Counted from the first letter of the stretch, positions 17,963 through 50,348 are shown. The stretch: 64,000 nucleotides of DNA from Candidatus Iainarchaeum sp. (GCA_026397015.1 JAPLVR010000003.1:186359-250358), one strand, 5' to 3'. Numbers and translations are program-made. The notes: generated by a model from the letters alone, not told the origin.

Positions 17963-18033
17963 CCCCGATAGTCTATTGGTTAGGATTCACCCCTGTCACG
18001 GGTGAGAGCCGGGTCCGAATCCCGGTCGGGGCG
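17962..18033 (+). tRNA. tRNA-Asp (anticodon GTC)
   Basis: Folded by hand: 7-bp acceptor stem GCCCCGA/TCGGGGC, D-arm GTCT/GGAT, anticodon stem CACCC/GGGTG with loop CTGTCAC, T-arm CCGGG/CCCGG with loop TCCGAAT, and discriminator G. No encoded CCA. TTTT follows. Confidence 0.85.
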
Positions 18034-18146
18034 TTTTGGGCGAAAGGCCTATCTATTAACAGTGTATATTTTAACAATAAAAAAAAGAAAAAGCAAAACC
18101 TTTAAATACAACCTCGATACACAAAATAATATTGGTTGCGATTTCG

Positions 18147-31946: not shown

Positions 31947-32531
31947 TTATTCTTGTTCCTCAGTTGCCAATATAGCTCCATACCTGAAAACTCTCATTCC
32001 AAGTCTGACCCATTCGTCAGGGGCAAGGCCTGCTTTGAGACAGAGGTGCGAAAGAAATTCCTCTTTTGTTTCAATTTCTTCCCAGACACTTGGAAGGAAT
32101 GTCGCGCTGCGGAAGCCTTTCCGGATTATCAAACCGTCTTTTCCTGCAACAATTTTTTTCAGCAAATCGGCGGGAGAAGAAAATTTCATTTCAACAGCAT
32201 CTGTGAGAACTGAAACCTCGATTTTCAAATCGGAAAGTTCATTTTTTGAGAGAGGGTTGAAACGCGAATCCTGAAATGCGGCGTTAACTGCATTTTCTAT
32301 AATGTCAAGGTAAAGGGGCTGCATCGCGTCAAGGTGGCCGATACACCCTCTCAGCTCGCTCCCATTTGTCAAGGTAACAAAGCAGGCCTTTTCTTCCAAC
32401 AAGTTTTTTGGAACCACTTTTTCGGAAAGTTTTAGAAGCGCGCCGCCGCTAAAAAAATATTCTATTGATTTGCGCGCAAGCGAAACACAGAACTTTTTTT
32501 CTTTTTCATTCAAGGAAAATTTTGAACCCAT
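31947..32531 (-). CDS. AMMECR1-domain protein (AmmeMemoRadiSam system protein A)
   Basis: AMMECR1 core LRGCIGHLDAMQPLYLDIIENAVNAAFQDSRF. Confidence 0.85.
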   Translation of the reverse strand: MGSKFSLNEKEKKFCVSLARKSIEYFFSGGALLKLSEKVVPKNLLEEKACFVTLTNGSELRGCIGHLDAMQPLYLDIIENAVNAAFQDSRFNPLSKNELSDLKIEVSVLTDAVEMKFSSPADLLKKIVAGKDGLIIRKGFRSATFLPSVWEEIETKEEFLSHLCLKAGLAPDEWVRLGMRVFRYGAILATEEQE

Positions 32532-32593
32532 TATTTCACCCTCAACACAAAATTACCACGCAAAATTATTTATTATTGCCCCTTACTTCCCCC

Positions 32594-33352
32594 CTATTCC
32601 ACAAAAACAATCGAAGCGTAGCCGACCACTTTGCTTTTGTCTCCGGCGGTATCGCCCGAATTTTTGTACTCAACCAAAACCGGTTTCCACTTAAATTTTT
32701 TTGCAATAATCATCAATGCGGCGATTCCGGTTTTGCCGCAGGCGTCGCCCGAAAGCAGAAATTTTTTCAAATCGAGAGAAATAATCGCAGCGATTGTTGC
32801 GTTATCAATTCTGTTTGCGTCGTCATAACGAAGATAATGACTTAAGTCGGAGCTTGCAACCAGCACGGAATCTTTTGAAACAAGCGGCTTAATTTTTTCA
32901 GCCAGTTCTTCGGCGGAAATTTCGCCGTAAATTAATGGCACGAGAACAAATTGTTTGAAAATTTTCTGGAGAAAAGGCACTTGAACTTCTAAGGAATGCT
33001 CCACATCGCCCCGAATTGCATCAATGCCCGGCGCCTTTTCTACTTTCACTAATCCTAATGGTGTTTCCCAATTCTGGTCAAACGAATATGCACCTTCAAA
33101 ATACGCCTGATGAGAAGGACCGAACAGCACAACTTTCTTTGCTCTTGACCTTTTTAGCAAAACATATGCGGGGGAGGCAACGGATGCGGAATACACATAA
33201 CCTGCATGGGGAACTATTGCGCCGCGGATTTTTCCTGAAATTTTTTCAGAAATTGTTTTGCTTTCAAAAAGCAATTTGTCAATAAGTTCTGAAAGTTCGT
33301 CCTTATCGGCGGGATAAAATTGGCCGGCATAAACCGGCTCTCTTATATTCAC
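32594..33352 (-). CDS. Memo-like protein (AmmeMemoRadiSam system protein B)
   Basis: N-terminus IREPVYAGQFYPADKDEL and GAIVPHAGYVYS, typical of MEMO1/extradiol-dioxygenase class III subunit B. Confidence 0.85.
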   Translation of the reverse strand: MNIREPVYAGQFYPADKDELSELIDKLLFESKTISEKISGKIRGAIVPHAGYVYSASVASPAYVLLKRSRAKKVVLFGPSHQAYFEGAYSFDQNWETPLGLVKVEKAPGIDAIRGDVEHSLEVQVPFLQKIFKQFVLVPLIYGEISAEELAEKIKPLVSKDSVLVASSDLSHYLRYDDANRIDNATIAAIISLDLKKFLLSGDACGKTGIAALMIIAKKFKWKPVLVEYKNSGDTAGDKSKVVGYASIVFVE

Positions 33353-33384
33353 TCACACGCCCCCTGTTTTTTCTTTTTCAACTT

Positions 33385-34431
33385 TTATTCAAAAACACCT
33401 TCTATTTTTTCGCCGCAATCCGCACATCTTGCGCTCCTCGAAAGGCCCCCCGCTTTTTCTAGCCCGCCCATGGCGACGCCGTAAAGGCTTCTCTCAATAA
33501 TTTTCGCACCGCAATTCGGGCAATAGGTGCTTTCCAAATCCGAATCAGAAAGATTGCCGCCGTAAACAAATCTCAGCCCTGCATCCTTCCCTATTTTCAT
33601 CGCCTCTTTTATCTGGTTCGCAGAAGTTTTTGGAATTCCCGCCATCTTGTGGCACGGATGAAAAGCGGAAACGTGCCACGGAATGCTTTTATCAACGGAA
33701 GAGATAAAATCCGCCAACTGCTTCAAATTATCATGCGAAGTGTTTTTACCCGGAATTAGAAGCGTAGTAATTTCGGTCCACGTTTTGTTTTTATGGAAGG
33801 ATTTTATTGTTTCGAGAACTCCTTCAAGTTTTGCGCCGCAAATTTTTTTATAAAATTCGTCATCGAAACTTTTCAAATCAATATTAATCGCGTCAAGTTT
33901 TCGCCGCAATGATTTTATTTGTTCTTCGCTTTCGTATCCGTTGCTTACAAAAACGGTTCCGAAATTTTTTTTTCTTGCAAGGGCGATTGCGTCAAGGCAA
34001 TATTCGATTGAAATGGCGGATTCGTTGTATGTGAATGCGACGCTTTTTGCGCCGCTTTCTTCCGTAAGGGAAATGAATTTTTCCGGGCTCACTTCCTGCA
34101 TTCCCGGCAAAAGTTTTTCAACCTGTTCGCCTTTCACGGCGGAAATATCATAATTTTGGCAGAAGGCGCAGGAAAAGTTGCAGCCGAAGAAGCCGATGCT
34201 CATTATTTCAGTTCCGGGCTTGTAGTGGAACAGCGGCTTTTTTTCCATCGGATCAAGATGGATGCTGCAAGGTTTTGCATAAGTAATGAGAAAAAGCTTG
34301 CCGCCAATATTTTTGCGCACGCCGCAGATACCGAAGCGGCTTTCGGCTATTGTGCAGCCGTGCCTGCACGCGCTGCATTTCACCGCGTTCTCCGGCTTTT
34401 CAAGCCGCTTATAAAATGTGCATTCCTTCAT
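33385..34431 (-). CDS. AmmeMemoRadiSam system radical SAM enzyme
   Basis: Radical-SAM cluster FGCNFSCAFCQN plus an N-terminal Cys cluster CSACRHGC...GICG. Adjacent and co-directional with the AMMECR1 and Memo genes. Confidence 0.85.
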   Translation of the reverse strand: MKECTFYKRLEKPENAVKCSACRHGCTIAESRFGICGVRKNIGGKLFLITYAKPCSIHLDPMEKKPLFHYKPGTEIMSIGFFGCNFSCAFCQNYDISAVKGEQVEKLLPGMQEVSPEKFISLTEESGAKSVAFTYNESAISIEYCLDAIALARKKNFGTVFVSNGYESEEQIKSLRRKLDAINIDLKSFDDEFYKKICGAKLEGVLETIKSFHKNKTWTEITTLLIPGKNTSHDNLKQLADFISSVDKSIPWHVSAFHPCHKMAGIPKTSANQIKEAMKIGKDAGLRFVYGGNLSDSDLESTYCPNCGAKIIERSLYGVAMGGLEKAGGLSRSARCADCGEKIEGVFE

Positions 34432-35591: not shown

Positions 35592-35753
35592 AAATCCCAA
35601 AAAGTTAATTTTTTTGCCCAAAAACAAAGAAGTGCTACATAACCGCACCGGCTTTTGAACAATCACTTTACTTTCGGTCTTTTACCGTGTGAAAAAAAAT
35701 TACAAAGTAAACAAAAAAGCAAGCTTAAATACACAAAAGACATTATTTTGTGG

Positions 35754-38663
35754 ATGAAAAAAGCCGTCTTAATCGCGGGCATTCTTTTGTCGCTAATCAT
35801 ACTTTCTGGGGCAGCGCTCGCGGAGGATTGTGTTTGTACCGATGTATACGAGCCCGTATGCGGAGTCGACAAAAAAACATATGGAAATGAGTGCAACGCA
35901 AACTGCGCCGGAATTGAAATTGCTTATAAGACAGGATGCTCTCACACCTGCGAAGATATCTCCTGCACACTTACCTGCCCATATGGAGTTAAAGCTGATG
36001 AATACGGCTGCAAGCTCTGCGAATGCAACGAAATTAGCTGCGCCGGAGAAGGAATGGGAATCGCGGTAATACCAAATCCGCCGAGCTGCTGTGAGGGACT
36101 CAATCAAATACCCCCGAAAAGCGGGGACCTCTTAGGCATTTCCGGAATATGCACTGCAAAATGCGGCAACGGAAACTGCGACACAGGAACAGAAACTAAT
36201 TATAATTGCCCCGAAGACTGCCAGCCAGTGCCATGCAAAAACGATGGAGAAGACATTCCGGTTATTGAGAATCCTCCTGTATGCTGTGAAGGATTAAGGG
36301 CTGAACCAATATATGACAGGAAAGGAGTTAGTGCGATATGCAAAAAGCCGACCCCTTGCATCGGCACCATCGACGAACAAGGGTGCAAAGTAGTGAAATG
36401 CGATGATGGCAGGTATGAAAGAAATTGTCCAACCACCCCGACACCGGTAACATGCGAAAAGCAGGAAGATCCTGCAACTAAATGTGTAATAAAAAAATGC
36501 AGCGATGGATACATTGATAGATGGTGCCCGACACAGCCCACTGAATGCAAAACTTATATTGATGAAAAGGGCTGCAAAGTAACTTCCTGCGCAGATGGGA
36601 CCAGACGAGATTGTCCGACGCCCGCACAAGAGGAATGCACGAAATATGTTAGGGAAGACGGCTGCGTAGTGAAGAAGTGCAAAGAGGGTGCCGTAATGAT
36701 TGATTGCCCGACTAGTACAGTACTTCCTGCAAGTGCGGTACCCACAAGCTGCATCGAAGTGAGAGATGAAAGCGGAAATGTTGTAAGCAGGCAATGCCAA
36801 GCGGTTGCAGTAAATGAAGTGCCAATTTTCACAACCGCCTGCCCAACAGATGAAGACAATAAGAGAAAAATAGAAGCGTGCAGGCTCTCAAACGGAAATC
36901 CATTTACCGAAGCATCCTCAAATGGGTGCAAAGTAATCAATTGCCGGATGGCAACATCAAGTACCACCAGTGGCGACGCAACGCCGGCCGTTGCAACAAC
37001 CTGTCCGGGGCAGCCAATTGAGGAAATTAGAAAAATAAAGGATGACTGCAAGCAAAATGCCGGCGAAATAATTGTGAAGTTTGATGGTGGCGGATGCGAG
37101 AAATATTACTGCATAAAAAACTGGGAGCAGGACTGCAGAAAGGAAAAGGACATTCCTGCTGAAAAGAAGGATTCCTGCGAAAAGCAGGGCGGGCAATTTA
37201 TATTAAAAACAAACGAAAAGGGCTGCATTACATTCATTGACTGCATCACGACCGGACAGAGTAGCTATGCTTCATCGGAAATAAAAAAGACGCCCGATGT
37301 TGCAGAGCTCACTGATTTGGCTTTTAAACTGGAAAGCCTGAAAATAGAATTTGAGGGCCTTGGAAAGAAAGCAGACGGAATTGCAGCATATTACGAAGAA
37401 AACGGAAATGAGGCGGATGCGAACAGGTTCAAGAGGGTTGCAGGCATGCTCTACTCCGCAAAGGACAAAATCGATGAAATCAAGAATATGATACGGGAAA
37501 ACCTTGATAACTTCGATGAAAGCATGGCAAGGGAAGTAAAAGATTCCATAAGGTACATAAAGGAAATACTGCTGAAAGACATTCTTTACATTATGCTCGG
37601 TGGGGAGGGAAAAGCCGGGGAAACCTGCAAAAACATTTCCTGCTTTGAGAGGGCATTAAGGGCTTGCCTCCCGACAACGATAACAGTAAGCGAAGGCGGA
37701 AAAGAAATGGAAATAAATATTCTCGGGGTGGAGGACAACCTTTGCAAATTAGAGGCAAAGACGGGCGATGAAAGCGGAACATACGAAATGATCTGCAAAA
37801 TCCCCGACTTTTCTATGATAGGCTTGGGGCAATTCAAGCCGGAAAAATACTGCGAGGGAACGCTGCTTGATTATATGGCAGGAAGTATAAGCCCAAAAAC
37901 GTCAACAAGCAACCAGATACAAGCCCCATTAGAAGGACCAGAGCTGATAATAGAGTCTGTGAAATGCGTATTTAATAATAACGCCAGTGGAACGCAGAAA
38001 TGCTACGACAGCACAGGGGCATACGGGTGCGCAAATGAGCCTAAAAGAGACAAAAGAGACTACTCAACAATGTGCACGCCCAAAACGGAACAGATTAAAG
38101 TCGGGGAAAGGATCGCAGTGAACGGCGGCGGGGCATATGAAGGCAAAACACTGACAATAAACTTAACGGATACAACCGCCACAAACACCGACGAAACGAC
38201 TATAAAAAGCGCATGGGCATTAAAAAACGGCGATGAAATGCTGAAAACCGCCGAAACCATAAGGGGCAACACAAGCTCACAGGACGATCTCAGCTTGATA
38301 TTCCGCGAATACATTGCCACAGGCACCTATATCCGCATCACGGGCATAGTGCCAACAGGGGATAAATATGCCGTAACGCTGGTAACCACCTGCGAAACGT
38401 CCGATTACACTTCGTGCACTGCTGAAGTAAAGGGGGCCAAAGGCACAAAGCTTACTTGGAAAAGCACATGCGGAGGATATGCATACACAACAGTGGACGG
38501 GGAAAACGAATATGCAGAATTCAAATGCGGATTCTGCGACAGCTTAGACGAAGCGGGCTGTGAAAAAACAGAAGGATGCACCACCGTCCGTATTTCTGCA
38601 CCACCAACAGGAGCAACAAGCGATACTGGTAAATTTGTTAGATGCGAGGCGATAGTTCAATGA
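35754..38663 (+). CDS. Cys-rich secreted protein with N-terminal Kazal-like domain, ~30-aa GC.V..C.DG.....CPT repeats, coiled-coil and C-terminal Cys domain
   Basis: Signal peptide MKKAVLIAGILLSLIILSGAALA. Kazal signature CVCTDVYEPVCGVDKKTYGNECNANCA. At least six repeats of the form EQGCKVVKCDDGRYERNCPT. The tool start at 35655 adds 33 aa upstream of the signal peptide. Confidence 0.7.
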   Translation: MKKAVLIAGILLSLIILSGAALAEDCVCTDVYEPVCGVDKKTYGNECNANCAGIEIAYKTGCSHTCEDISCTLTCPYGVKADEYGCKLCECNEISCAGEGMGIAVIPNPPSCCEGLNQIPPKSGDLLGISGICTAKCGNGNCDTGTETNYNCPEDCQPVPCKNDGEDIPVIENPPVCCEGLRAEPIYDRKGVSAICKKPTPCIGTIDEQGCKVVKCDDGRYERNCPTTPTPVTCEKQEDPATKCVIKKCSDGYIDRWCPTQPTECKTYIDEKGCKVTSCADGTRRDCPTPAQEECTKYVREDGCVVKKCKEGAVMIDCPTSTVLPASAVPTSCIEVRDESGNVVSRQCQAVAVNEVPIFTTACPTDEDNKRKIEACRLSNGNPFTEASSNGCKVINCRMATSSTTSGDATPAVATTCPGQPIEEIRKIKDDCKQNAGEIIVKFDGGGCEKYYCIKNWEQDCRKEKDIPAEKKDSCEKQGGQFILKTNEKGCITFIDCITTGQSSYASSEIKKTPDVAELTDLAFKLESLKIEFEGLGKKADGIAAYYEENGNEADANRFKRVAGMLYSAKDKIDEIKNMIRENLDNFDESMAREVKDSIRYIKEILLKDILYIMLGGEGKAGETCKNISCFERALRACLPTTITVSEGGKEMEINILGVEDNLCKLEAKTGDESGTYEMICKIPDFSMIGLGQFKPEKYCEGTLLDYMAGSISPKTSTSNQIQAPLEGPELIIESVKCVFNNNASGTQKCYDSTGAYGCANEPKRDKRDYSTMCTPKTEQIKVGERIAVNGGGAYEGKTLTINLTDTTATNTDETTIKSAWALKNGDEMLKTAETIRGNTSSQDDLSLIFREYIATGTYIRITGIVPTGDKYAVTLVTTCETSDYTSCTAEVKGAKGTKLTWKSTCGGYAYTTVDGENEYAEFKCGFCDSLDEAGCEKTEGCTTVRISAPPTGATSDTGKFVRCEAIVQ

Positions 38664-38933: not shown

Positions 38934-39812
38934 ATGCGAAAAACTTTTTTCCCGCCGCAATTCATCGAAAAATACAAAAAATTCTGCGGAAGCGAGTGGG
39001 GCGGCTTCTTCGAGTGCATTCAAAGAAAACAGCCGAAAGCATTTTGGGTTAACACGGACAGGGCAACCGTCGAAGAGGTGAAAAAATCCCTCACCGCACA
39101 AAAAATAAAATTCGGACAGCTGCCCTTTCACGAGCAGGCATTTGCAATCGAGCTTCAAAGGCCCGGGAATTTGAGGGAATTCAAGGAAGGAAAAATTTCA
39201 ATACAGGAAAAAGCGGCGATGCTGCCCGTGCTGGCGCTTGCGCCTACAAAAAAAGATTATGTTTTGGATGCATGCGCTGCACCGGGAGTGAAAACGATTC
39301 AATTGAGCAATTTTGCTGGAAAAGTGCTTGCGGTTGATGTGAACAGCACGAGGATAAAGAGCCTGCTTTACAACAAAAAAGTTTTCGGGCTGAAAAATGT
39401 TGAGGTGGCGCGTAGCGACGCCAGAAATGTGAAGGAAACATTCGACAAAATACTGCTGGATGCGCCGTGCTCAAGCGAGGGGCTTGTAAGGAAAAGAATG
39501 GATGCGCTGGAGGGATGGTCGCAGAAGCTCGTACAAAGGAAAGCAAAGGTGCAAAAAGGGCTTATTTTGGGGGCGTTTGATTTATTGAAACCGAAGGGCG
39601 AAATGGTTTATGCAACATGCTCTTTCGCGCCGGAAGAGAATGAGGAAGTCGTGAAACTGCTGCTGGACAAGAGGAAAAATGCGGAGGTTCTGCCTGTTGA
39701 ATTTAAAGGAGTTAAAATAAGGGAGAATAATTTGTGCAAAAATTGCATTCGGCTTTGGCCGCAGGACAATGATACGCAGCAGTTCTTCTTCGCAAAAATT
39801 AGGAAAAATTAA
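38934..39812 (+). CDS. RNA cytosine-C5 methyltransferase (NOL1/NOP2/Sun family)
   Basis: SAM-binding and catalytic motifs DACAAPGVKT, DAPCSSEG (motif IV, Pro-Cys) and ATCSF (motif VI, Thr-Cys). Confidence 0.8.
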   Translation: MRKTFFPPQFIEKYKKFCGSEWGGFFECIQRKQPKAFWVNTDRATVEEVKKSLTAQKIKFGQLPFHEQAFAIELQRPGNLREFKEGKISIQEKAAMLPVLALAPTKKDYVLDACAAPGVKTIQLSNFAGKVLAVDVNSTRIKSLLYNKKVFGLKNVEVARSDARNVKETFDKILLDAPCSSEGLVRKRMDALEGWSQKLVQRKAKVQKGLILGAFDLLKPKGEMVYATCSFAPEENEEVVKLLLDKRKNAEVLPVEFKGVKIRENNLCKNCIRLWPQDNDTQQFFFAKIRKN

Positions 39813-40943
39813 TTAGGGGATTATTTCGGCACAATTATATTTTAGGAATTCGAGCTGCTTCTTTTTTATTTTTCCGGAGGCGAGCAGCTTTTTTATTTCC
39901 GGAGAGATTCTTTCCATTTCACGGAGCAGATGTTTTACCGTTGCGCAAAGCTCATTTCTCCCTCTTTCCAGCCAGGGCTTTGTGATGTTTGAGTAAAGGC
40001 AGCGGCCGCCGCAGAGCCCGAAATCGGCACAGGAAACGCAGGGCTCTTTCACGGTTAATTTGAAAGGCAAATCGGTTGGATTCGAAGTCCGGATATCGCC
40101 GAGGTAGTAATCATTCATGCCGGACATTATGGGGCAGGCAGAAATCTTTCCGTTCGGGAGGATTGTGAAATTCCCTATTCCTGAGCCGCATCTCAAATAA
40201 TACTTTTTTCCAAAAATAAGTGAATTAATTATTCCCATAAACGGGTAAAGGCGCAGGACTTTTCCTTTCTTCAACTCTTTCAGCCAAAAATTCGCAAGCT
40301 TTGTTATTTGCTTGTTGTAATTCTTCGACCATTCCGGAAAGTTCCTTTTTTTATAGTCGTGCCACATGTTCGCATCAAGCTGCCAGTGGATTGAAACGAA
40401 AGGAAATTCCTTGTTTTTGAGCAGATGCATTAAGTCCTTGTAAAAATCGGTCGGCTCTTCGACGCACATCCGAGCGATTATTTCGCCTTTGAAGCCGTTC
40501 TTCTTCAGCAACTTTAAATTTGAAATTATTTTTTCATATGTTCCTTCGCCCCTGTTTCTGTCGGTCGTTTCCTTTGTGCCGTCAATGGAAACAAGTACTG
40601 TGTGAAATTTGTTTGAATACTTTGTGGGAAGCTTGTCGAAAAGAATTCCGTTGGTTTGAATCAGAAAATTTCTTGCTTTTGTAGAATCCATTATTTGCTT
40701 TATCGAATCGATTTCAAGCAGCGGCTCGCCGCCGTAAAAAATTATTGAAACTCCTTCCTTGTCCTTTGAAAGAAAATTGTTGAGCTCTTGCATTGAGTAT
40801 TGGATTTTTTGGGGAACTTGCTCGAATTTCAAATCGATTTCGGGTTCGTCAAAGGCTTTTTCGCAGCAGTATTTGCAGCACAAATTACATTCCGGAGTCG
40901 TTATTATGTGATAAATCATAAAAAAAACCACCATTTCAATCAA
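39813..40943 (-). CDS. radical SAM enzyme with C-terminal SPASM domain
   Basis: N-terminal CxxxCxxC (PECNLCCKYCC), GGEP motif (IFYGGEPLL), and C-terminal SPASM Cys array CVSCADFGLCGGRCLYSN. It lies tail-to-tail with the NSUN gene with zero gap, and is last in a three-gene minus-strand operon. Confidence 0.8.
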   Translation of the reverse strand: MIEMVVFFMIYHIITTPECNLCCKYCCEKAFDEPEIDLKFEQVPQKIQYSMQELNNFLSKDKEGVSIIFYGGEPLLEIDSIKQIMDSTKARNFLIQTNGILFDKLPTKYSNKFHTVLVSIDGTKETTDRNRGEGTYEKIISNLKLLKKNGFKGEIIARMCVEEPTDFYKDLMHLLKNKEFPFVSIHWQLDANMWHDYKKRNFPEWSKNYNKQITKLANFWLKELKKGKVLRLYPFMGIINSLIFGKKYYLRCGSGIGNFTILPNGKISACPIMSGMNDYYLGDIRTSNPTDLPFKLTVKEPCVSCADFGLCGGRCLYSNITKPWLERGRNELCATVKHLLREMERISPEIKKLLASGKIKKKQLEFLKYNCAEIIP

Positions 40944-40965
40944 ATGAAAAATCTGAAATTAAAAG

Positions 40966-41838
40966 CTAAAATGCCGTTTCAAAGCTTAATCCTTTGGTAT
41001 ATCTATTCAAGCCAACCATTTTTTCTGGAATTTTTTCCCTGTCGGCGAATTTCTTGTAATCTAAAACTTTTTTCTTCCGAAGGAAGAGCGGAAGCTTTGA
41101 GGCGACGCCGTTGCCGCCGATGCAGCCGCCTTTGCAGAACAAAATGTCATAAAAAATTTTGTCGGAATGCGTTTCAAATAGTTTTAGCAAATCTGCGCAA
41201 CCATCGCGGGAAACAGTCTCCCCCTCTTTCAAAATATCTTTTGAATGCAGTGTTTTACCGAGTCCCCCGGAGAGCGGGTAAATTTTAGTGTAATCGTTGT
41301 AGAAGCGGTCGAACAGATGCGAGCGACCGGACTTTTTTGGCTTTTCTTTTTCAATAATTCCTTTCATTTCCCTAAAAGTAAGCGCTGCTGAAATCAACCT
41401 GCCATTTTTTGCTTCAATTTTTTTCGCGGAGCAGGGGGCAAGAAAAACGATTTTGTGCTTCGGATATTCCTTATGAAGTATCTTTGCCATTGAAATCACT
41501 GGAGAATCAAAAGGCAAAAGGAATTTTTTTAATTCAGGGTGACGGTTTTTCACCATTTCAACGGAAGTAGGGCAGACAGAGGAAATGAATTTCTCGTAGC
41601 CTTTCTTTCCTTTATTTTCTTTTATGTATTTGTGATAGTGTTCATTTACTATTTTTGCGCCGAAAGTGAGCTCGGTTATCCTGTCGAAGCCGAGCCCTTT
41701 CATCAAGGGAACAAAAGAAAGATAATCGAAGTCGACAACAAAAGAGGGCGCCGCCATCAAGCAAACTTTTTGCTTTTCATTCAAAAGCGACAGAACTTTT
41801 TTCTGGTCAGTGGAATAACTAAAATTTAGATCGACCAT
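40966..41838 (-). CDS. ultraminimal [FeFe]-hydrogenase-like protein (H-cluster domain only; HydA/Nar1-like)
   Basis: All three H-cluster motifs are present. L1 is SSVCPTSVE (TSCCPxW-like, with the proton-relay Cys replaced by Val). L2 is APCSAKKIE (MPCxxKxxE). L3 is DILFCKGGCIGGNG (ExMACxGGCxxGGG). 290 aa, with no accessory FeS domains. Confidence 0.6.
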   Translation of the reverse strand: MVDLNFSYSTDQKKVLSLLNEKQKVCLMAAPSFVVDFDYLSFVPLMKGLGFDRITELTFGAKIVNEHYHKYIKENKGKKGYEKFISSVCPTSVEMVKNRHPELKKFLLPFDSPVISMAKILHKEYPKHKIVFLAPCSAKKIEAKNGRLISAALTFREMKGIIEKEKPKKSGRSHLFDRFYNDYTKIYPLSGGLGKTLHSKDILKEGETVSRDGCADLLKLFETHSDKIFYDILFCKGGCIGGNGVASKLPLFLRKKKVLDYKKFADREKIPEKMVGLNRYTKGLSFETAF

Positions 41839-41864
41839 CCTAAATGAGATGGAAAAGAAAGTAT

Positions 41865-43091
41865 TTATTTGTTGGGTTTGCGCTTCAGAACGAAAACCTT
41901 GTCATTCGGCCTGCATCTGCCGGAAACTTTTATTCCAACGAATTCGCCTTGCCTAGCTTTTTTTATTTTCTTATGGTTGATTTCCATTGAGTCGAGTTTT
42001 TGCTCGATAAAAGTAGTTACGCCTTCAATAATTAATTTTTCACCGGCAGAGAGCGGAGCAAAGAGTTTTACTTCTGCCACGCCCGGCTTAACAAAATAAT
42101 GGGTTATGATGCCTACGTTAAATCTCTTCTGTGTTTGGACTGAACCCTGTCCTTTAGCTAAATCTTTTTCATCAGGAACGGAAAAAAAGAAACCATTTGA
42201 GAAGCCGCGGTTGTAAACTTTTTCAAGTTCTGAGTTCCAACGGGCAATTTTTTCTTTTGAAAAAGTGCCTTCAAAAACGGAGTCGATTGCCTGACGGTAA
42301 CAGCGCGTTGCAACTGCAATGTAATCGGAAGGCTTTGTCCGCCCTTCAATTTTAAGCGAATCAACCCCCACCCAGATTATTTTGTCCAAAAAATCTATTG
42401 TTTTCAGGTCTTTGGCGGAAAGGATGGTGCTTCCGTCCAAAAAAATCTCCTTCTTTTCGAAATTCGGGAAGTCGCCGTCCAAAAAGTAGGCGCGGCGGCA
42501 GGGCTGGAGGCATTGTCCGCGGTTCGCGCTTCTTCCAAACAGTTCATGGCTAAGGAAGCAGCGGCCGGAAACGGAAATGCACATGGCGCCATGAATGAAA
42601 CACTCAACTTCAATCCCAAGCTTTTTTGCAATTTTCTTTATTTTTGAAATCTGTTTCAGGCTGAGTTCGCGGGCGAGAATTATTCTTTTTATTCCTAGGG
42701 ATGAGTATTGCTTCAATGCTTCCGAGTTGGAAACGCTGGCCTGCGTGCTGAGGAACGGTTTTAGTTTGAATTTTTTTGCGAGCGAAAGGACGGAAAAATC
42801 CCACAAAATTACGCCGTCAACTTTTGCCCTTTTTGCTTCCTTTAATATTTTTTCCACTTGCTTTATTTCCCCGTCAAAAATTATTGTATTCAGCGCAAGG
42901 TAGCCTTTCATGTCGCTCGCGTGAAGGGAAGCCATTAATTTCTTCATGTCGCTGGCGGAGAAGTTGGTGCCGAGGTCGCGCATATTGAAGCCGCGGACGC
43001 CGAAGTAAACCGCATCGGCGCCGTTCGTGGCTGCGGCTATCGCCGAGGCAAAGTCGCCGACGCCCACGCACAATTCGGGCTTTTTCGACAT
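41865..43091 (-). CDS. peptidase U32 family protein (RlhA/TrhP/UbiU-type O2-independent hydroxylase fold)
   Basis: U32 signature EVECFIHGAMCISVSGRCFLSH. The start was set at the internal Met (MSKKPELCVGV). The tool start is at 43127. Confidence 0.75.
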   Translation of the reverse strand: MSKKPELCVGVGDFASAIAAATNGADAVYFGVRGFNMRDLGTNFSASDMKKLMASLHASDMKGYLALNTIIFDGEIKQVEKILKEAKRAKVDGVILWDFSVLSLAKKFKLKPFLSTQASVSNSEALKQYSSLGIKRIILARELSLKQISKIKKIAKKLGIEVECFIHGAMCISVSGRCFLSHELFGRSANRGQCLQPCRRAYFLDGDFPNFEKKEIFLDGSTILSAKDLKTIDFLDKIIWVGVDSLKIEGRTKPSDYIAVATRCYRQAIDSVFEGTFSKEKIARWNSELEKVYNRGFSNGFFFSVPDEKDLAKGQGSVQTQKRFNVGIITHYFVKPGVAEVKLFAPLSAGEKLIIEGVTTFIEQKLDSMEINHKKIKKARQGEFVGIKVSGRCRPNDKVFVLKRKPNK

Positions 43092-43170
43092 TGGAATCTT
43101 TTTTGCAGTTGAGTGATTACGGCGCATGATAGCATAAATTAAATAAAGAAACGCTTATAATTTTCTGCAT

Positions 43171-44364
43171 ATGAACGCGATTGACATAACCGAGTTTGTA
43201 ATAAAGACGTTCAGGGAGGGCAAACTTAGGACGTTTCTTACACTTGTGGGGATAGTAATAGGCGTTGCGGCGATAACGACTCTTTTTTCAGTGGGCACTT
43301 CGTTGAATGCGACTATCGAAAACGTTTTTCTCGCATTTGGGACCGACATGATTTACATAGAACCGGGAATGAGCATAAGCGAAATGATGACGACAAAGAT
43401 AAGCGACGACGCGATAAAACTTGCTGAAGGGGTAAGGGGCGTAAAAGAAGTAATTCCCTTTTATGAGACGAGCAGCGTCGGAAAAATTGGAAGCACGGAA
43501 AGTGGTTTTTTTATATTCGGAATTGACCCGGCCAAATTTGCAACGTTCGATGAGTCTGGTTATTTCACCGTGCTGGAAGGCAGACCGCTGAATAAGGGCG
43601 AGATATATTCAGTGCTTACATATAAAGACGCGCTAAAAAAATCTTTCGGAAAGGAAATAAAACTCGGGCAGTCAATTGAATTCAACAAAAAAAAGTTCAA
43701 AATAGTCGGATTTCTCGCGGAAAACTCGATGATGAGCGTGAGCCTCGGAGGAACCAATCTGCTGATAGTAAGCGACACGGCTGCAAAGGAATTGTTCGAT
43801 ACAAAAGATGCGATGGAAGCGGCTGTGACAGTGTTTGAAGGCTATGACTTAACAGATGTCGGCAGCAAAATTGAAACCAAACTGGATGACAAATACGGAA
43901 AAGGGGTTTACACAATTCTGACGCCGGACGAGGCATTAGCGCAGGTCGGCCAAATAATACTTATTGTGCAGGTGGTGCTAGGGTTCATTGCATTCATTTC
44001 GCTTATCGTCGGAGGAATAGGAATAATCAACACGATGGTAATGAATGTGAATGAAAGGGTTCAGGAAATAGGGACTATGAAAGCTATAGGCGCGACAAAT
44101 ACTACGATTGAAATGTTGTTTCTTTTTGAAGCGCTGATAATGGGGCTCGGGGGCGGACTGATAGGAGTTGTGATAGGATACATAATGACTTTTGCAGTGG
44201 TGCTGGTTGCAGGCGCAACAGGATTCCCGATGATTTTTACCATTGACTGGGGGCTTGCAGGCGGAATGATTATTTTTGCGTGCGCAATGGGCGCGGTAGC
44301 GGGAATAATTCCCGCAAGAATTGCCGCATCAATGGAACCTACAAAAGCGCTGAGGTACGAGTAA
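43171..44364 (+). CDS. ABC-transporter permease, FtsX/MacB-like (DUF214)
   Basis: N-terminal TM, a ~230-aa extracytoplasmic domain, and three C-terminal TMs with the FtsX signature ...RTKEIGTMKAIGAT.... No ATPase gene in the window. Confidence 0.75.
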   Translation: MNAIDITEFVIKTFREGKLRTFLTLVGIVIGVAAITTLFSVGTSLNATIENVFLAFGTDMIYIEPGMSISEMMTTKISDDAIKLAEGVRGVKEVIPFYETSSVGKIGSTESGFFIFGIDPAKFATFDESGYFTVLEGRPLNKGEIYSVLTYKDALKKSFGKEIKLGQSIEFNKKKFKIVGFLAENSMMSVSLGGTNLLIVSDTAAKELFDTKDAMEAAVTVFEGYDLTDVGSKIETKLDDKYGKGVYTILTPDEALAQVGQIILIVQVVLGFIAFISLIVGGIGIINTMVMNVNERVQEIGTMKAIGATNTTIEMLFLFEALIMGLGGGLIGVVIGYIMTFAVVLVAGATGFPMIFTIDWGLAGGMIIFACAMGAVAGIIPARIAASMEPTKALRYE

Positions 44365-44408
44365 ATATGTTTTGGGCGCAAACAAATATTTTTTGGGTGG
44401 CGAGTTAA

Positions 44409-45596
44409 ATGATTGACTTGGAACTTGTTAGGAGAGGATTTGGCAACATAAAAAATTACGGGCTCAGGAGCGCGCTCACAATACTTGGAATAATTGTTGC
44501 TGTTGCGTTAATAGTTGCGCTGATTTCAATAAGCAACGGTTTTTCCGCGAGCATTGACAAGCAGTTCGAATCGTTCGGAACGAACACCCTTATAGTAATG
44601 CCGGGAAAGAGTTCCATGGAAGGAATGTTTGCAAAACTTCAGGAAGGAGACGGAGCCGTTATTGAAAAAGTTTCAAGGGTAAAACTCGCGGTTGAAATAT
44701 TTACCTCTTCCGTTGACGTAACTTTCAAAGGCGAAACAAAAAGAACGCCTGTTTACGGGGGATCGAGAAAAAACTTTTCAAATCTTGAATTCAATAATTT
44801 TATCACAATAGGGGAAGGAGCGCTCATACAAAAACAGAGCGGGCTGTTGGTCGGAGGGAAGTTTGCAACTGAAAAATTTGACAAAGAAATAACTCTCGGG
44901 TCGATGCTCCAACTGGGCGGAAAAGAATTCAATGTTGTCGGGATTCTCAAAACATCGCAAAATTTCACATCTTCGATGTTTTCAAGCGCAATACTGATGG
45001 ATTCTGATGAACTTAAGAAAATTCAACCGAGTATAGTGCCTTCAAGAATATTCGTGAAATTTGACGATACCGCAGATGTCGAAGAAATTAAAGACAAAAT
45101 TACAAAAAAACTGAAGGATGCGCATGGAAAAGAAGATTTCAGGATAGTTGATTCGAAACAGCTGGCCCAATCGGCGACTTCCGTACTTGGAACAATACAG
45201 GTGGTGGTGCTCGGAATCGCATTCATTTCCCTCCTTGTGGGTGCAATCGGTGTAATGAATTTAATGTTCATGAACGTAAGCAACAGAACAAAAGAAATAG
45301 GGACTATGAAAGCGATAGGCGCGACCAATTATCAGGTGATGGTAATTTTCCTGACGGAAGCAATGCTTATCGGCACAATAGGGGGGCTAATAGGGGCGAC
45401 AATCGGCATCGCGGTCGGAATTGCTTCGGAAGCGGTTGCAAATGCCGCCGGGTTCGAACTGATACCGGTAATGGGAATCGATTTGATTTTGTTTGCAATA
45501 TTTTTTGCCGGAATCATAGGGATACTTTCAGGCGTGCTGCCTGCAATAAGGGCTTCGCGGCTTGATCCTGTTGACGCAATAAGGCAAAGCAACTGA
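44409..45596 (+). CDS. ABC-transporter permease, FtsX/MacB-like (DUF214), paralog
   Basis: Same architecture as the upstream permease, with the MKAIGAT motif conserved. Confidence 0.75.
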   Translation: MIDLELVRRGFGNIKNYGLRSALTILGIIVAVALIVALISISNGFSASIDKQFESFGTNTLIVMPGKSSMEGMFAKLQEGDGAVIEKVSRVKLAVEIFTSSVDVTFKGETKRTPVYGGSRKNFSNLEFNNFITIGEGALIQKQSGLLVGGKFATEKFDKEITLGSMLQLGGKEFNVVGILKTSQNFTSSMFSSAILMDSDELKKIQPSIVPSRIFVKFDDTADVEEIKDKITKKLKDAHGKEDFRIVDSKQLAQSATSVLGTIQVVVLGIAFISLLVGAIGVMNLMFMNVSNRTKEIGTMKAIGATNYQVMVIFLTEAMLIGTIGGLIGATIGIAVGIASEAVANAAGFELIPVMGIDLILFAIFFAGIIGILSGVLPAIRASRLDPVDAIRQSN

Positions 45597-46050
45597 CACG
45601 CGAAACGAAATTGATCAATGGGCAATCGGGCTGAAAAAAATAAAAAATGTTTTACAGCGCGAGAATAATTCTTCTGATGTCGAGAAGCAGAGCCATTATT
45701 GAAACCATGAGCGCAATTTGAAGGTAAATAAAAATCTGGGATTTTGGGAGTCCTGCCTGAATTGAGATTGCACCAAACATTATGCCGCCCAAAAAAACAA
45801 GAACAATTTTTACGAGAGAATGATGAGAAGTCCTTTCCCCGTCGAGGAACGACGAATTATGGTGGACCAAGCGCTCAAGGCTTCGCTGTTTTAAGGAAAA
45901 TTTTTTTGAAAAGCCCCCGCTTTTTTGAACCATAAAATAATTACTCGCCTCTCCTATTTAAGCTTTTGTTTGCCAAAATTTAGCGCCGATTTTCAAAAAA
46001 TTTCTCGTGCCCTTCAGGTTTTTTAAATGTTTCCAGGCACTTTTTCTGCT

Positions 46051-46479
46051 ATGGGCATAACATATTTTTCTCTGCAGGGCGCAAATGAAAAAATACAAAA
46101 AATAAAGCCGATTATAGAAAGGATGCGCCAGCTTGTCGAGGAGCTTGATTTTCTTGATAACACAAAAATAGAACTAGAAAATGAGAGTACGGAAAGCCTT
46201 ATGCTCGAGGTTGCATTGAACAAAAGCTTCCACGAAAAAAATCTGGAATTGTATTCCCTGATAGAAAAGGTGATACGCGAAGGCTGCATAGTAAGGGACT
46301 TGCAAAGCATGGAAATCGATTTTTATTCAAAATTGGGGGAGCGAAATATTCTCCTGTGCTGGAAACGCGGAGAGGAAAAAGTACAGTGCTGGCACGAAAC
46401 ATTCGAGGATTGCTCGAAAAGGAAACCCGCCGTTTTAATCGAAAAAAATTACTTTGAGCAGCTCAAAAGGCTGCGGTAA
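46051..46479 (+). CDS. hypothetical protein (about 142 aa)
   Basis: ORF-track 46027..46479. The internal Met MGITYFSL is the likelier start. No motif recognised. Confidence 0.4.
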   Translation: MGITYFSLQGANEKIQKIKPIIERMRQLVEELDFLDNTKIELENESTESLMLEVALNKSFHEKNLELYSLIEKVIREGCIVRDLQSMEIDFYSKLGERNILLCWKRGEEKVQCWHETFEDCSKRKPAVLIEKNYFEQLKRLR

Positions 46480-46762: not shown

Positions 46763-46993
46763 TTGGACTTTGAAATCAAAGATCATTATTTGGTTCCTGA
46801 GCACGTCCTAATTAGGAAGGAAAAGGTCGAAGAGTTAATGGCCGGGCTAGGAATAAGAAAAGAATCTTTGCCGAGAATTTCGAAAGTTGATCCTGCAATA
46901 AAACTTTTAAAACCGAAAAAAGGCGACGTTGTAAAAATAATCCGCGATTCGATAACCGCCGGGCAGACGGTATACTACAGGATTGTGGAGTAA
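46763..46993 (+). CDS. rpoH: DNA-directed RNA polymerase subunit H (Rpo5)
   Basis: 76 aa. GDVVKIIRDSITAGQTVYYRIV matches the RpoH/Rpb5 C-terminal domain. It heads the rpo operon. Confidence 0.85.
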   Translation: MDFEIKDHYLVPEHVLIRKEKVEELMAGLGIRKESLPRISKVDPAIKLLKPKKGDVVKIIRDSITAGQTVYYRIVE

Positions 46994-47036
46994 AATTTTT
47001 TGATTTCGGAACGATGAAGGATTGTGAGGGGTTTTT

Positions 47037-48500
47037 GTGGGCTGGGAACTGATTGAATCTTACTTCAAGAACAAAAACATCGCACAGATGGAGATTGATT
47101 CATACAACCAGTTCATCGAAAAAAAGCTTGACAATATTGTGAAGGAAAACGCGCTGATTGTTCCGAAAATAGAAGAAGTAAAAGTAGAGCTTTCAAATAT
47201 CGAAATTCTGAAACCGAAAATTACTGAAGCGGATGGTTCGCCGCGCGAAGAGTTTACGCCGATGGAAGCGAGGCTGAGAAACAGGACTTATGCCGGACCG
47301 ATTTATTTGGAAATGAGGCTTTACAGAAGGGATGTGGAACAGGATGCGAGAAGGGCGTACATCGGCGACATACCCGTAATGCTGAAATCAAAACTTTGCT
47401 GGCTGGACGGAAAAAGCCCGGAAGAACTTACTGAAATGGGCGAGGACCCCAAAGATTTCGGCGGATACTTTATTGTGAACGGTTCTGAAAAGGCGTTAAT
47501 GACCCAGGAAGTTCTTGCATCCGACAGGGTATTAATTTCAGAAAGCGAAAAGGGGGTTGCCGCGGAAGTTATTTCAACGCGCGGAGCATTTAAAGGAAGA
47601 ACAAGGGTTACGAGAAGCCCTGAGGGAATAATTTATGTTTCATTCCCGACAAGCCCGAGAAAATTAATGATTGTCACGCTTTTCAAAGCGCTTGGATTAA
47701 AAACGAAGTCGGACGTCTTCGGCGCATTTCCGGAAGAAGTCGAAGTGGTAAACGATTTGTTATTGAACTGGGAAGAGTGCGAAATAAAGGATGAGGAGGA
47801 GGCGCTGGACAAAATCGGAAAATACGTTGCGCCCGGGCAGGTAATTGATTACAGGCTTAGAAGGGCAAGGGAAGTAATTGACGGCTTTTTGCTGCCTCAC
47901 ATAGGGCAGGAGGAACCGGCCAGATTGACGAAGGCATACTATCTGGCAATGATGGCAACAAAAGCGATTGAAAGAAGCTACGGTTTAAGGGGAGAGGACG
48001 ACAAGGACCATTACGCAAACAAGAGATTGGAGTTGAGCGGAAAACTGATGGAACACTTGTTCAGGTATTCATTCAAGTATTTTGTAAAGGATTTGAGATT
48101 CCAGATCGACAGGACTGTTACGAGAAGAAGAAAATTAAATATTTCAACAATAGTCAGACCGGGCGCGATGACGGAAAGAGTCAGGTTTGCGATGAGCACG
48201 GGAAACTGGATAGGGAGAAGCACGGGCGTGGCAAAATTCATGGACAGGGTAAATTATTTGAGCCCTCTTACTGACATAAGAAAAATAAAGAGCCAGCTGA
48301 GCAAAACAAGGGAACTTTACGAGGCAAGGGACGTTCACGGAACGCACTGGGGAAGATTGTGCCCGGTGGAAACGCCTGACGGTCCGCAATGCGGATTAGT
48401 AAAAAATCTCGGATTATTGGCGGAAGTTACGACCGAATCTGATGAGAAGCCGATTGAGGATTTCCTGCACAATCAGGGAGTAAAGCTGAAGAAATTGTAG
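47037..48500 (+). CDS. rpoB2: DNA-directed RNA polymerase subunit B'' (N-terminal part of split Rpo2)
   Basis: GTG start. Conserved Rpo2 N-terminal regions (…GYFIVNGSEKAL…, …ELYEARDVHGTHWGRLCPVETPDGPQCGLVKNL…). Confidence 0.9.
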   Translation: MGWELIESYFKNKNIAQMEIDSYNQFIEKKLDNIVKENALIVPKIEEVKVELSNIEILKPKITEADGSPREEFTPMEARLRNRTYAGPIYLEMRLYRRDVEQDARRAYIGDIPVMLKSKLCWLDGKSPEELTEMGEDPKDFGGYFIVNGSEKALMTQEVLASDRVLISESEKGVAAEVISTRGAFKGRTRVTRSPEGIIYVSFPTSPRKLMIVTLFKALGLKTKSDVFGAFPEEVEVVNDLLLNWEECEIKDEEEALDKIGKYVAPGQVIDYRLRRAREVIDGFLLPHIGQEEPARLTKAYYLAMMATKAIERSYGLRGEDDKDHYANKRLELSGKLMEHLFRYSFKYFVKDLRFQIDRTVTRRRKLNISTIVRPGAMTERVRFAMSTGNWIGRSTGVAKFMDRVNYLSPLTDIRKIKSQLSKTRELYEARDVHGTHWGRLCPVETPDGPQCGLVKNLGLLAEVTTESDEKPIEDFLHNQGVKLKKL

Positions 48501-48533
48501 TTTATATTTTTAAGTTTGAAACGGTGAAAAAAG

Positions 48534-50348
48534 ATGGCAAAATTTGCAAAGGTTTACATCAATGGAAGGCTGATAGGATTCCATGAAAACCCTGAAGAAC
48601 TTACTGAAAAAACAATCGAATCGAGAAGAGCGGGAAGGATTCCAAAAGAAGTCAATGTGGCATTCCACAAGGACACAAACGAAGTCTACATCAACTCCGA
48701 TGCGGGAAGATTGCAAAGGCCGGTAATTGTTGTAAAAAACGGGAAAAGCCTTTACACCGAAGAAATAAAAAAGAAGGTTGAAGACGGAAAGGCTTCCTTC
48801 AAACAGATTGTTGAAATGGGAATAATCGAATTTTTGGACGCGGAAGAAGAGGAAAATGCATTCATCGCGCAAGTGGACGAAGAACCTACAAAGGAACACA
48901 CTCATCAGGAAATTGACGGCGCAAGCGTATTGAGCATAATAACAAACCTCATACCTTACCTTGAGCATAACATGGCGGGAAAGGTTTTGCACGGTGCGAA
49001 AATGTTCAAACAGGCAATAGGAATGGGGGCAACAAACTACAATTTGAGACACGACACCGAAGGGTACACTCTTTACTATCCGCAAAAAAGCATTGTAAAA
49101 ACAAAAACGATGGACATACTGGAATTGGACAAAAGACCGTTAAACCAAAATTTTGTTGTCGCAATACTTCCATATTATGGGTACAATACGATGGATGCCG
49201 TTGTAATAAATCGCGGAGCGATTGAAAGGGGACTGGGCAGGGGCTCATATTACAGGAATTATGAAACGAATGAAAACAGGTATCCCGGCGGACAGAGGGA
49301 CAGATTCGAGGTTCCGACCGAAGACAAGGTTGAGTTTGTTGATGAAAAAGAATTCACAAAAATCGGGCAGGATGGATTAATACAATTGGAAGAGTTTGCC
49401 GGAGACCATGAAGTAATTATAGGAAAAACTTCGCCCCCAAGATTTTTGGAAGAAATGAGCGATTTCGGAGTCGACCAGGAAAAGAGAAGGGACAGCTCTG
49501 TAAGGGTAAAAAAAGGAAAGCCCGGCTACGTGGACACCATAATAATGACCGAAGGAGAAGACGGAAGCAGGCTTGTTAAATTGAAGGTAAGAACGCCGCT
49601 GATTCCAAGCGTTGGAGATAAGTTCTCTTCAAAACACGGGCAAAAAGGAATCGTTTCAATGATAGTTCCGGAAGAGGACATGCCTTTTACAATTGACGGG
49701 ATAAAACCTGATTTAATTTTGAACCCGCACTCAATCCCTTCAAGAATGACGATGGGGCATCTGCTTGAAATGCTTGCGGGAAAAGCGGGGTGCATGAGCG
49801 GCCAAATAATTGACGGAACGCCTTTTGCCTCAATGAAAAGAGAGGAACTTGAACAGATGCTTTTTGAAAGGGGATTCAGGTCGGACAACAATCAGATTTT
49901 GTATGACGGGATTACCGGAAAGAGATTAGAGGGCGCGGTATTTACCGGAGTAATTGCTTACAAAAAACTTTATCACGTCGTTGCACACAAATTGCAGGCG
50001 AGGGCACGCGGGCCTGTACAAGTGCTGACAAGGCAGCCGACGGAAGGAAAAGAAAAAGAGGGAGGGCTAAGATTCGGAGAGATGGAGGGAGAAACTCTTG
50101 TCGGGCACGGAGCGGCGATGCTGTTGCATGAAAAATTACTTGAGGATTCGGATAAGACGGTTGAATTGGTGTGCGAAAAATGCGGCGTTGTCGCAATAAA
50201 CGATGAAATAAGAAACAAGAGGTACTGCCCGTTATGCAAAGGTTCAAGCGTTTACCCTGTTGAGATGAGCTACGGCTTCAAGCTTTTGCTTGAAGAACTT
50301 AAGGCGCTGGGCATTTTGACTAAACTCAATCTGGCGGACAAGGTTTGA
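48534..50348 (+). CDS. rpoB1: DNA-directed RNA polymerase subunit B' (C-terminal part of split Rpo2)
   Basis: Conserved …GDKFSSKHGQKGI…, the GEMEGETLVGHGAAMLLHEKL anchor, and the C-terminal zinc ribbon CEKCGV...CPLCK. Confidence 0.9.
   Translation: MAKFAKVYINGRLIGFHENPEELTEKTIESRRAGRIPKEVNVAFHKDTNEVYINSDAGRLQRPVIVVKNGKSLYTEEIKKKVEDGKASFKQIVEMGIIEFLDAEEEENAFIAQVDEEPTKEHTHQEIDGASVLSIITNLIPYLEHNMAGKVLHGAKMFKQAIGMGATNYNLRHDTEGYTLYYPQKSIVKTKTMDILELDKRPLNQNFVVAILPYYGYNTMDAVVINRGAIERGLGRGSYYRNYETNENRYPGGQRDRFEVPTEDKVEFVDEKEFTKIGQDGLIQLEEFAGDHEVIIGKTSPPRFLEEMSDFGVDQEKRRDSSVRVKKGKPGYVDTIIMTEGEDGSRLVKLKVRTPLIPSVGDKFSSKHGQKGIVSMIVPEEDMPFTIDGIKPDLILNPHSIPSRMTMGHLLEMLAGKAGCMSGQIIDGTPFASMKREELEQMLFERGFRSDNNQILYDGITGKRLEGAVFTGVIAYKKLYHVVAHKLQARARGPVQVLTRQPTEGKEKEGGLRFGEMEGETLVGHGAAMLLHEKLLEDSDKTVELVCEKCGVVAINDEIRNKRYCPLCKGSSVYPVEMSYGFKLLLEELKALGILTKLNLADKV

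Follow-up and report, generated by a model that had tools for sequence, protein, structure and literature searches.

Do three adjacent genes for iron-sulfur (Fe-S) enzymes in an archaeal genome form a dedicated biochemical system, or are they neighbours by descent? This question is raised by a stretch of 64,000 nucleotides from Candidatus Iainarchaeum sp. (GCA_026397015.1, JAPLVR010000003.1:186359-250358; the window in the following, with all coordinates given as positions in this 64-kb stretch), in which a U32-family protein, a HydA-like protein and a radical S-adenosylmethionine (SAM) enzyme with a SPASM domain are encoded one after the other on the minus strand. The original prediction for this locus had read the three genes as a single transcription unit and as a new redox or modification module. 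From the gene identities and the comparison of neighbourhoods reported below, we consider it likely that the three products are functionally independent Fe-S enzymes, which are neighbours by lineage-specific synteny in one clade of the Iainarchaeota (Diapherotrites) and do not constitute a dedicated three-gene system. The genes and the spacer between the second and the third are as follows.

41865..43127, minus strand: U32-family Fe-S protein, 420 aa (PF01136, E 9e-76)
40966..41838, minus strand: HydA, predicted H-domain-only [FeFe] hydrogenase, 290 aa (PF02906, E 2e-29)
40920..40965, minus strand: HydA-radical-SAM spacer of 46 nt, with TATA-like TTTTAATTT at 40956-40964, a Shine-Dalgarno-like GGTGG at 40928-40932 and a T8 run at 40920-40927
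39813..40919, minus strand: radical-SAM/SPASM enzyme of family TIGR04084 (AF0577-type, "rSAM_AF0577"), 368 aa (PF04055; NCBIfam 323.6 bits, cutoff 225)

Order, strand and all three domain assignments agree with what had been predicted. While the Pfam SPASM match of the third protein stays below threshold (E 0.0045), the CX3CX2C motif (C11/C15/C18) and all seven SPASM cysteines (C244/C262/C291/C294/C300/C304/C322, in the numbering of the topmost aligned protein) are invariant in its family alignment, as is a C-terminal EIIP motif. Of the two predicted spacers, the 26 nt between U32 and HydA stand, and the 22 nt between HydA and the radical-SAM gene do not. The latter value rests on an open reading frame (ORF) listed as 39813-40943, which begins at a TTG at 40943; since all homologues start with M-x-[FY]-H and the NCBI model comprises 368 aa, the start is the ATG at 40919 and the real gap measures 46 nt. 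An A/T-rich box about 22 to 32 nt upstream of the radical-SAM gene (~-22 to -32) is found in most of the related loci, including those where the gene upstream lies on the other strand and the radical-SAM gene must hence possess its own promoter. These boxes were judged by eye, the available scanner for sigma-70 promoters and terminators being not applicable to archaea. The elements in the window's own spacer would fit an internal promoter and/or an archaeal terminator of the oligo-T type better than obligatory read-through, and may indicate independent transcription.

For the comparison of gene neighbourhoods, 80 species-level genomes were sampled from the 373 that encode a HydA relative, the window genes were located in the resulting HydA-anchored loci, all ORFs were clustered and gene maps were drawn. 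The 80 loci include 32 of the Iainarchaeota type, with HydA proteins 53-78% identical, and 48 from Nanoarchaeota (Woese- and Pacearchaeota). A radical-SAM-anchored scan with a Pacearchaeota-type enzyme as query covered a further 80 metagenome contigs. The genes that flank the three in the window and to which the comparison refers are listed here.

38934..39812, plus strand: RNA m5C methyltransferase of the NOL1/NOP2/Sun (NSUN) family (PF01189, E 6e-48; TIGR00446, 212 bits)
43171..45596, plus strand: two tandem permeases of the MacB/FtsX type (PF12704 and PF02687)
46027-46479, plus strand: DUF2203 protein (PF09969)
46763-46993, plus strand: rpoH, identified from its translation and from gene order in relatives
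47037-48500, plus strand: rpoB'', identified in the same way
48534-50348, plus strand: rpoB', identified in the same way

Across the 32 Iainarchaeota-type loci the order is DUF2203 (-), U32 (+), HydA (+), radical SAM (+) and NSUN (-), the signs being relative to HydA. The radical-SAM gene is retained in 27 of them and U32 in 25; NSUN is retained in 26 and DUF2203 in 21. Because the unrelated NSUN and DUF2203 genes, which lie on the opposite strand, are kept about as often as the presumed partners, the adjacency of U32, HydA and radical SAM probably reflects clade inertia rather than a module. The block adjoins the rpoH-rpoB-rpoA operon in the loci L090, L173 and L174, where the succession of the polymerase genes and DUF2203, then U32, HydA and radical SAM, and finally NSUN is the same as in the window, and the RNA polymerase operon is the anchor of this conserved synteny block. 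With rpoH and a split rpoB at 46763-50348, the window is recognisable as archaeal.

The block is also frequently interrupted. In a tally of the 32 Iainarchaeota-type loci, L090 and the window, with 33 loci evaluable per side, the radical-SAM gene lies downstream of HydA in 30, directly in 23 and behind ORFs of the opposite strand in seven. U32 lies upstream of HydA in 29 (21 directly, five with opposite-strand ORFs in between). One of the genes inserted between HydA and radical SAM, in L010, is supported by Pfam as DUF6159, and L090 carries two opposite-strand genes at this place that are called by the source annotation as well. Single loci depart further: HydA is directly followed by NSUN without a radical-SAM gene in L018, an IS66 transposase occupies the position expected for U32 in L024, and HydA stands beside NrdD and MatE in L027. 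As a separate observation, U32 and HydA are separated in four Iainarchaeota loci by an ORF in their own orientation, about 220-226 aa long (L004 4199-4879, L173 5341-6021, L174 4199-4879 and L017 6269-6931); for L173 and L174, the source annotation assigns this ORF to no Pfam family, and the L017 ORF was grouped with the others by position and size only.

The second line of evidence comes from the middle gene itself, which belongs to a class that has already been described to work as a stand-alone enzyme. Greening et al. (Cell 2024; PMC11216029) reported "ultraminimal" group E [FeFe] hydrogenases, with a mean length of 286 aa, from Iainarchaeota, Micrarchaeota and Nanoarchaeota; their models of archaeal group A1 and E enzymes retain the ligating cysteines and differ in proton-transferring residues. 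The group E representative from Ca. Forterrea multitransposorum (Fm) was shown to bind [2Fe]adt, to give H-cluster signals in Fourier-transform infrared (FTIR) spectroscopy and to turn over H2, with H2 evolution (PMC11216029).

The window protein carries PF02906 as its sole domain, at residues 24-242 of 290. Its family, confined to metagenome-assembled genomes (MAGs) of DPANN archaea, comprises 837 homologues at E<1e-5, and the best 120 of these 837 are about 280-330 aa long with PF02906 only. The cysteines C89, C136, C235 and C239 are invariant in a 19-member alignment and align with the H-cluster ligands C300, C355, C499 and C503 of CpI, so the loss of ligands that the original prediction had named as speaking against its reading is not borne out. 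K139, which is likewise invariant, corresponds to the CN-binding lysine K358 of CpI and E142 to its E361. Where group A enzymes possess the motif TSCCP, the window protein has SSVCP, which places Val88 at the proton-relay site C299 of CpI; valine, proline, threonine or alanine is found at this site across the family. The AlphaFold2 (AF2) model (pLDDT 86.8, pTM 0.88) retrieved in a Foldseek search against the PDB only [FeFe] hydrogenase H-domains among its top 50 matches, with TM scores of 0.72-0.80. The protein is 58% identical to its orthologue from a Ca. Forterrea MAG (L006), which has the same U32-HydA-radical-SAM order and falls into the same clade of a neighbour-joining tree, the reference for group E in this tree being the MAG orthologue. 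Judged from alignment and model, HydA is predicted to be a further member of the known group E class. Its single H-domain would use C89, C136, C235 and C239 to hold one [4Fe-4S] cubane with the 2Fe subcluster bridged to it. During fermentation, the enzyme would probably evolve H2 and in this way reoxidise reduced ferredoxin or a different carrier of low potential.

Outside the Iainarchaeota clade, the three genes part company. Neither U32 nor the radical-SAM gene lies within 7 kb of HydA in 46 of the 48 Nanoarchaeota loci. Sixteen of these 46 have the alpha and beta subunit genes of 2-oxoacid:ferredoxin oxidoreductase (OFOR) directly upstream of HydA on the same strand, often together with acetyl-CoA synthetase, and other Nanoarchaeota HydA genes follow an RNase Z-like gene. 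This association with OFOR has already been reported (PMC11216029), and it fits ferredoxin-dependent, fermentative evolution of H2. U32 without HydA or the radical-SAM gene occurs in a marine Iainarchaeum, in Woesearchaeota and in the loci L171 and L172 of two divergent genomes. The triad appears in one clade only among the 80 HydA-anchored and 80 radical-SAM-anchored loci, and a mobile or co-inherited three-gene module was rejected as an explanation. Of the expectation that unlinked genes in relatives would speak against the module, one half was found: distant relatives have the genes unlinked, close relatives have them linked. Composition did not support a recent horizontal insertion of HydA and the radical-SAM gene: their GC contents are 0.404 and 0.413, while the window averages 0.433 (standard deviation 0.028).

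Several observations weigh against neighbourhood by synteny as the whole explanation. The window and most of its close relatives have the three genes co-directional with very short spacers, an arrangement compatible with co-transcription. In Pacearchaeota, the loci L046 (recovered a second time as L091), L069, L112 and L119 carry an OFOR-HydA cluster convergent with the radical-SAM gene, and these HydA-radical-SAM loci occupy one or two neighbouring subclades of the neighbour-joining tree; in two Nanoarchaeota metagenome contigs, L134 (5001-9173) and L135 (5001-10562), TIGR04084 directly precedes co-directional OFOR alpha and beta genes, without HydA. According to a rough estimate, which assumes about 10 independent HydA neighbourhoods, each with two flanks, and a total of about 1000 genes, a second, independent juxtaposition of HydA and the radical-SAM gene would arise by chance with a probability of ~2%. 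Furthermore, to judge from L171 and L172, HydA and the radical-SAM gene appear to be present or absent jointly between U32 and NSUN, which would mean that the two were inserted or lost together. Finally, HydEFG is missing from the window, and most archaeal genomes with an [FeFe] hydrogenase are reported to lack it (PMC11216029), so that some unknown maturation factor must exist.

The arrangement could be accounted for by a redox module, in which HydA serves U32 and the radical-SAM enzyme as a local source or sink of low-potential electrons and the three act as one functional unit in Iainarchaeota: either H2 oxidation would reduce the [4Fe-4S] cluster of the radical-SAM enzyme, or H2 evolution would dispose of the electrons from U32-dependent hydroxylation. 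In line with this, all three are Fe-S proteins in need of low-potential electron transfer, tight co-directional spacing is shared by the window and 21-23 related loci, a search of the window for the motif CxxCxxCxxxC yielded no ferredoxin gene, and a few Nanoarchaeota have the radical-SAM gene in the vicinity of OFOR or HydA. Against this, no co-inheritance is seen beyond one clade, within which NSUN and DUF2203 are kept equally often and opposite-strand insertions are frequent. Both U32 and TIGR04084 are, moreover, often encountered where the locus or the lineage has no HydA, group E HydA has neither an accessory cluster nor a docking domain, and the HydA genes of Nanoarchaeota are linked to OFOR instead. 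We regard a redox module as improbable.

A narrower proposal concerns the radical-SAM enzyme, which, possibly with U32, might take the place of HydE and HydG and assemble or insert the 2Fe subcluster in archaea without HydEFG. The majority of archaeal genomes with an [FeFe] hydrogenase have no HydEFG, the closed genome of Forterrea among them, and an unknown pathway has been proposed in its place (PMC11216029); no later paper on archaeal maturation without HydEFG was found in the literature searched. Adjacency of HydA and the radical-SAM gene in two DPANN phyla, and the Forterrea MAG with its identical gene order, would agree with such a role. As predicted, maturases of the HydEFG type are not adjacent, no HydE-, HydF- or HydG-like gene being present in the window.

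Other findings speak against this role. Among solved structures, CteB (5wgg, E 9e-20) and anSME (4k36) come closest to the enzyme, and it resembles modifiers of proteins and peptides such as CteB, anSME and PapB and not HydE or HydG, the models of which are not among its 25 best NCBIfam matches. A search returned 2344 homologues at E<1e-10, and proteins of 48-54% identity are encoded in Bathyarchaeia, Aenigmarchaeota, Nanoarchaeia and other Iainarchaeota. There, including Bathyarchaeales, TIGR04084 stands in unrelated contexts: MFS with eIF-1A, purine genes, peptidase A24, Dph2, or AdoMetDC with spermidine synthase. In Bathyarchaeia, Aenigmarchaeota and other Iainarchaeota, HydA is not nearby. 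Among the 80 Nano-type radical-SAM loci, HydA lies nearby in three and OFOR without HydA in two, one contains a clear U32 homologue and two show weak, partial U32 matches; 77 of the 80 thus show no linkage to HydA, and of the 48 HydA loci from Nanoarchaeota 46 show none to the radical-SAM gene. In L018, HydA is present and no radical-SAM gene stands beside it. Archaeoglobus, from which the family name AF0577 derives, is not known to have an [FeFe] hydrogenase, which we count as a further point against this role. The possibility that the copy beside HydA is a dedicated, HydA-specific paralogue was discarded, because it is an ordinary TIGR04084 orthologue, 48-54% identical to those elsewhere and with the same invariant residues.

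We consider replacement of HydE and HydG by this enzyme highly improbable. Any functional tie between TIGR04084, perhaps with U32, and group E HydA, be it maturation independent of HydEFG or a relation as modifier or redox client, is granted a small probability, which we keep because the adjacency recurs in two DPANN phyla with the low chance estimate given above, the radical-SAM gene also abuts OFOR in two loci, HydA and radical SAM appear to be gained or lost jointly, HydEFG is lacking and no maturation paper was found in the literature searched; the broad distribution of TIGR04084 without HydA argues against a dedicated hydrogenase role. That the HydA-like protein is a Nar1/NARF-like Fe-S scaffold or sensor and no hydrogenase, for which the missing proton-relay cysteine could be cited, is extremely improbable and was rejected, given the invariant ligands and CN-binding lysine, the OFOR linkage of the Nanoarchaeota orthologues, which fits a ferredoxin-dependent hydrogenase, and the cofactor binding, FTIR signals and H2 turnover of the Forterrea enzyme (PMC11216029).

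With the three enzymes taken as functionally independent, the radical-SAM/SPASM protein would cleave SAM reductively and, with two auxiliary clusters, modify a conserved cellular substrate in the manner in which anSME and CteB act on proteins and peptides; this substrate would not be specific to hydrogenase-bearing organisms. The protein begins at the radical-SAM core, no N-terminal peptide- or leader-recognition (RRE) domain being found in it, and no precursor peptide gene adjoins it, its flanks being the abutting NSUN gene and, at 46 nt, HydA. Across 84 TIGR04084 loci no conserved small neighbour was seen. The commonest neighbours in these Nano-type loci are thermosome (16 of 84), TatD, Dph6, EamA and HisRS, and none of them qualified as a conserved partner pointing to the substrate. 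One Iainarchaeum (L086 5062-7116) has TIGR04084 immediately behind Dph2, and in six loci of Nanoarchaeota (e.g. L125 1535-6071) the gene follows Dph6 at a distance of about 1-3 kb. Housekeeping contexts such as Dph2, Dph6 and thermosome may hint at the substrate. The original prediction had named grouping with a known housekeeping family as a result that would tell against it; what we find comes close to this in spirit, TIGR04084 being a widespread family in housekeeping contexts. A literature search on TIGR04084/AF0577 returned nothing relevant.

The U32 protein contains the Fe-S motif CX6CX15CX3C, with C183, C190, C206 and C210 invariant in 14 orthologues. Its AF2 model (pLDDT 80.5) consists of a TIM barrel and a C-terminal beta-barrel, and MK0906 (5d88), itself a U32 protein, heads its fold matches. 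The C-terminal domain of the model resembles the U32 C-domain 4he6 and domain 2 of EF-Tu, a likeness that would be compatible with RNA binding. Against NCBIfam, the best scores are those for TrhP (205.7 bits, cutoff 534) and UbiU (156.6, cutoff 440), followed by UbiV (58.5, cutoff 275); since these scores fall far below the cutoffs, the protein is not an equivalog of TrhP or UbiU. We regard it as a putative O2-independent hydroxylase of the TrhP/RlhA type with a [4Fe-4S] site, which would probably act on RNA. The literature searched for archaeal U32 proteins yielded nothing relevant. U32 directly faces NSUN, with neither HydA nor the radical-SAM gene between them, in L171 (4199-6726) and L172 (525-3263); in the window the corresponding convergent genes span 38934-43127. 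U32 and NSUN may represent an RNA-modification pair, for example for anaerobic hydroxylation at C5.

Around the three genes, the window confirms much of what had been predicted. The NSUN gene is convergent with the radical-SAM gene and abuts it, its ORF ending 1 nt before that of the radical-SAM gene, and the two permeases diverge from U32. The LSGGQ signature of ABC ATPases is absent from all frames of the window, so that the permeases are indeed without an ATPase partner there. They occupy the junction of DUF2203 and U32 that is usual for the clade, and among the 80 loci permeases at this place are found only in L001 (1261-2451); the pair is an insertion common to the window genome and this closest relative only. 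A P-loop GTPase-like Walker A motif has a single match in the window, at 59616, which we read as a translation-factor GTPase and not as HydF.

Two further radical-SAM genes are encoded elsewhere in the window. One is TYW1 (4-demethylwyosine synthase; 2837-3808, minus strand; TIGR03972 above cutoff). The other belongs to a complete AmmeMemoRadiSam triad at 31947-34431 on the minus strand, composed of AMMECR1 (TIGR04335), Memo (TIGR04336) and the radical-SAM enzyme (TIGR04337); this conserved three-gene radical-SAM system of unknown function lies 5 kb from the U32-HydA-radical-SAM genes. At 35655-38663 on the plus strand, a Cys-rich protein of 1002 aa is encoded that has a signal-like N-terminal segment and antistasin/Kazal-like cysteine repeats and is apparently secreted; Pfam gives a weak Antistasin match only. 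Rfam and ARAGORN searches for structured RNAs over the 64 kb returned only a tRNA-Asp(GTC) at 17961-18034 on the plus strand.

With this locus, the smallest known type of [FeFe] hydrogenase gains a further representative from the Iainarchaeota. What the locus adds is a genomic context recorded for the clade, with U32 upstream, TIGR04084 downstream and the RNA polymerase operon beside them, which is absent from the main text of PMC11216029. No paper describing the three-gene combination as a system was found in the literature searched, in agreement with the original prediction. How archaea without HydEFG build the H-cluster is the wider question, and a radical-SAM gene beside hydA readily suggests itself as a candidate. 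For the most part, the comparative data speak against a dedicated role of this enzyme in hydrogenase maturation. They also flag TIGR04084 as a highly conserved archaeal radical-SAM/SPASM family in housekeeping contexts.

When compared to characterized systems, the predicted hydrogenase stands closest to group E, exemplified by Fm (PMC11216029). Both consist of the H-domain only, with about 286-290 aa and without accessory Fe-S domains, keep the four H-cluster cysteines, have non-canonical proton-relay residues, occur in a DPANN (Iainarchaeota) host and have no HydEFG nearby. There is no substantive difference: the window represents another Iainarchaeota MAG, with U32 and TIGR04084 as flanking genes. 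From the prototypical group A [FeFe] hydrogenases it differs in the proton-relay cysteine, replaced by Val88. The OFOR-HydA clusters of Nanoarchaeota and Micrarchaeota share the hydrogenase family and presumably the same ferredoxin-dependent, H2-evolving role; while HydA directly follows OFOR alpha and beta there, the window contains neither an OFOR nor a ferredoxin gene.

The U32 protein shares with TrhP, RlhA, UbiU and UbiV the PF01136 TIM barrel and the CX6CX15CX3C motif for a [4Fe-4S] cluster, together with a C-terminal beta-barrel as in long U32 proteins, and differs from TrhP, UbiU and UbiV in its scores far below the equivalog cutoffs, as a member of an archaeal subfamily. With the maturases HydE, HydF and HydG, the radical-SAM enzyme has in common that it is a radical-SAM protein with extra Fe-S clusters encoded beside hydA, whereas it is not BioB/ThiH-like, is not accompanied by a HydF GTPase and belongs to a family whose distribution is not tied to hydrogenase. 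Its best PDB and NCBIfam relatives are CteB/SCIFF maturase, PapB and anSME, with which it shares a radical-SAM core with CX3CX2C and the full seven-cysteine SPASM domain. In contrast to these, it has neither an RRE or leader-binding domain nor an adjacent precursor and forms part of a family of its own, TIGR04084, which is widespread in archaea, single-copy-like and embedded in housekeeping contexts.

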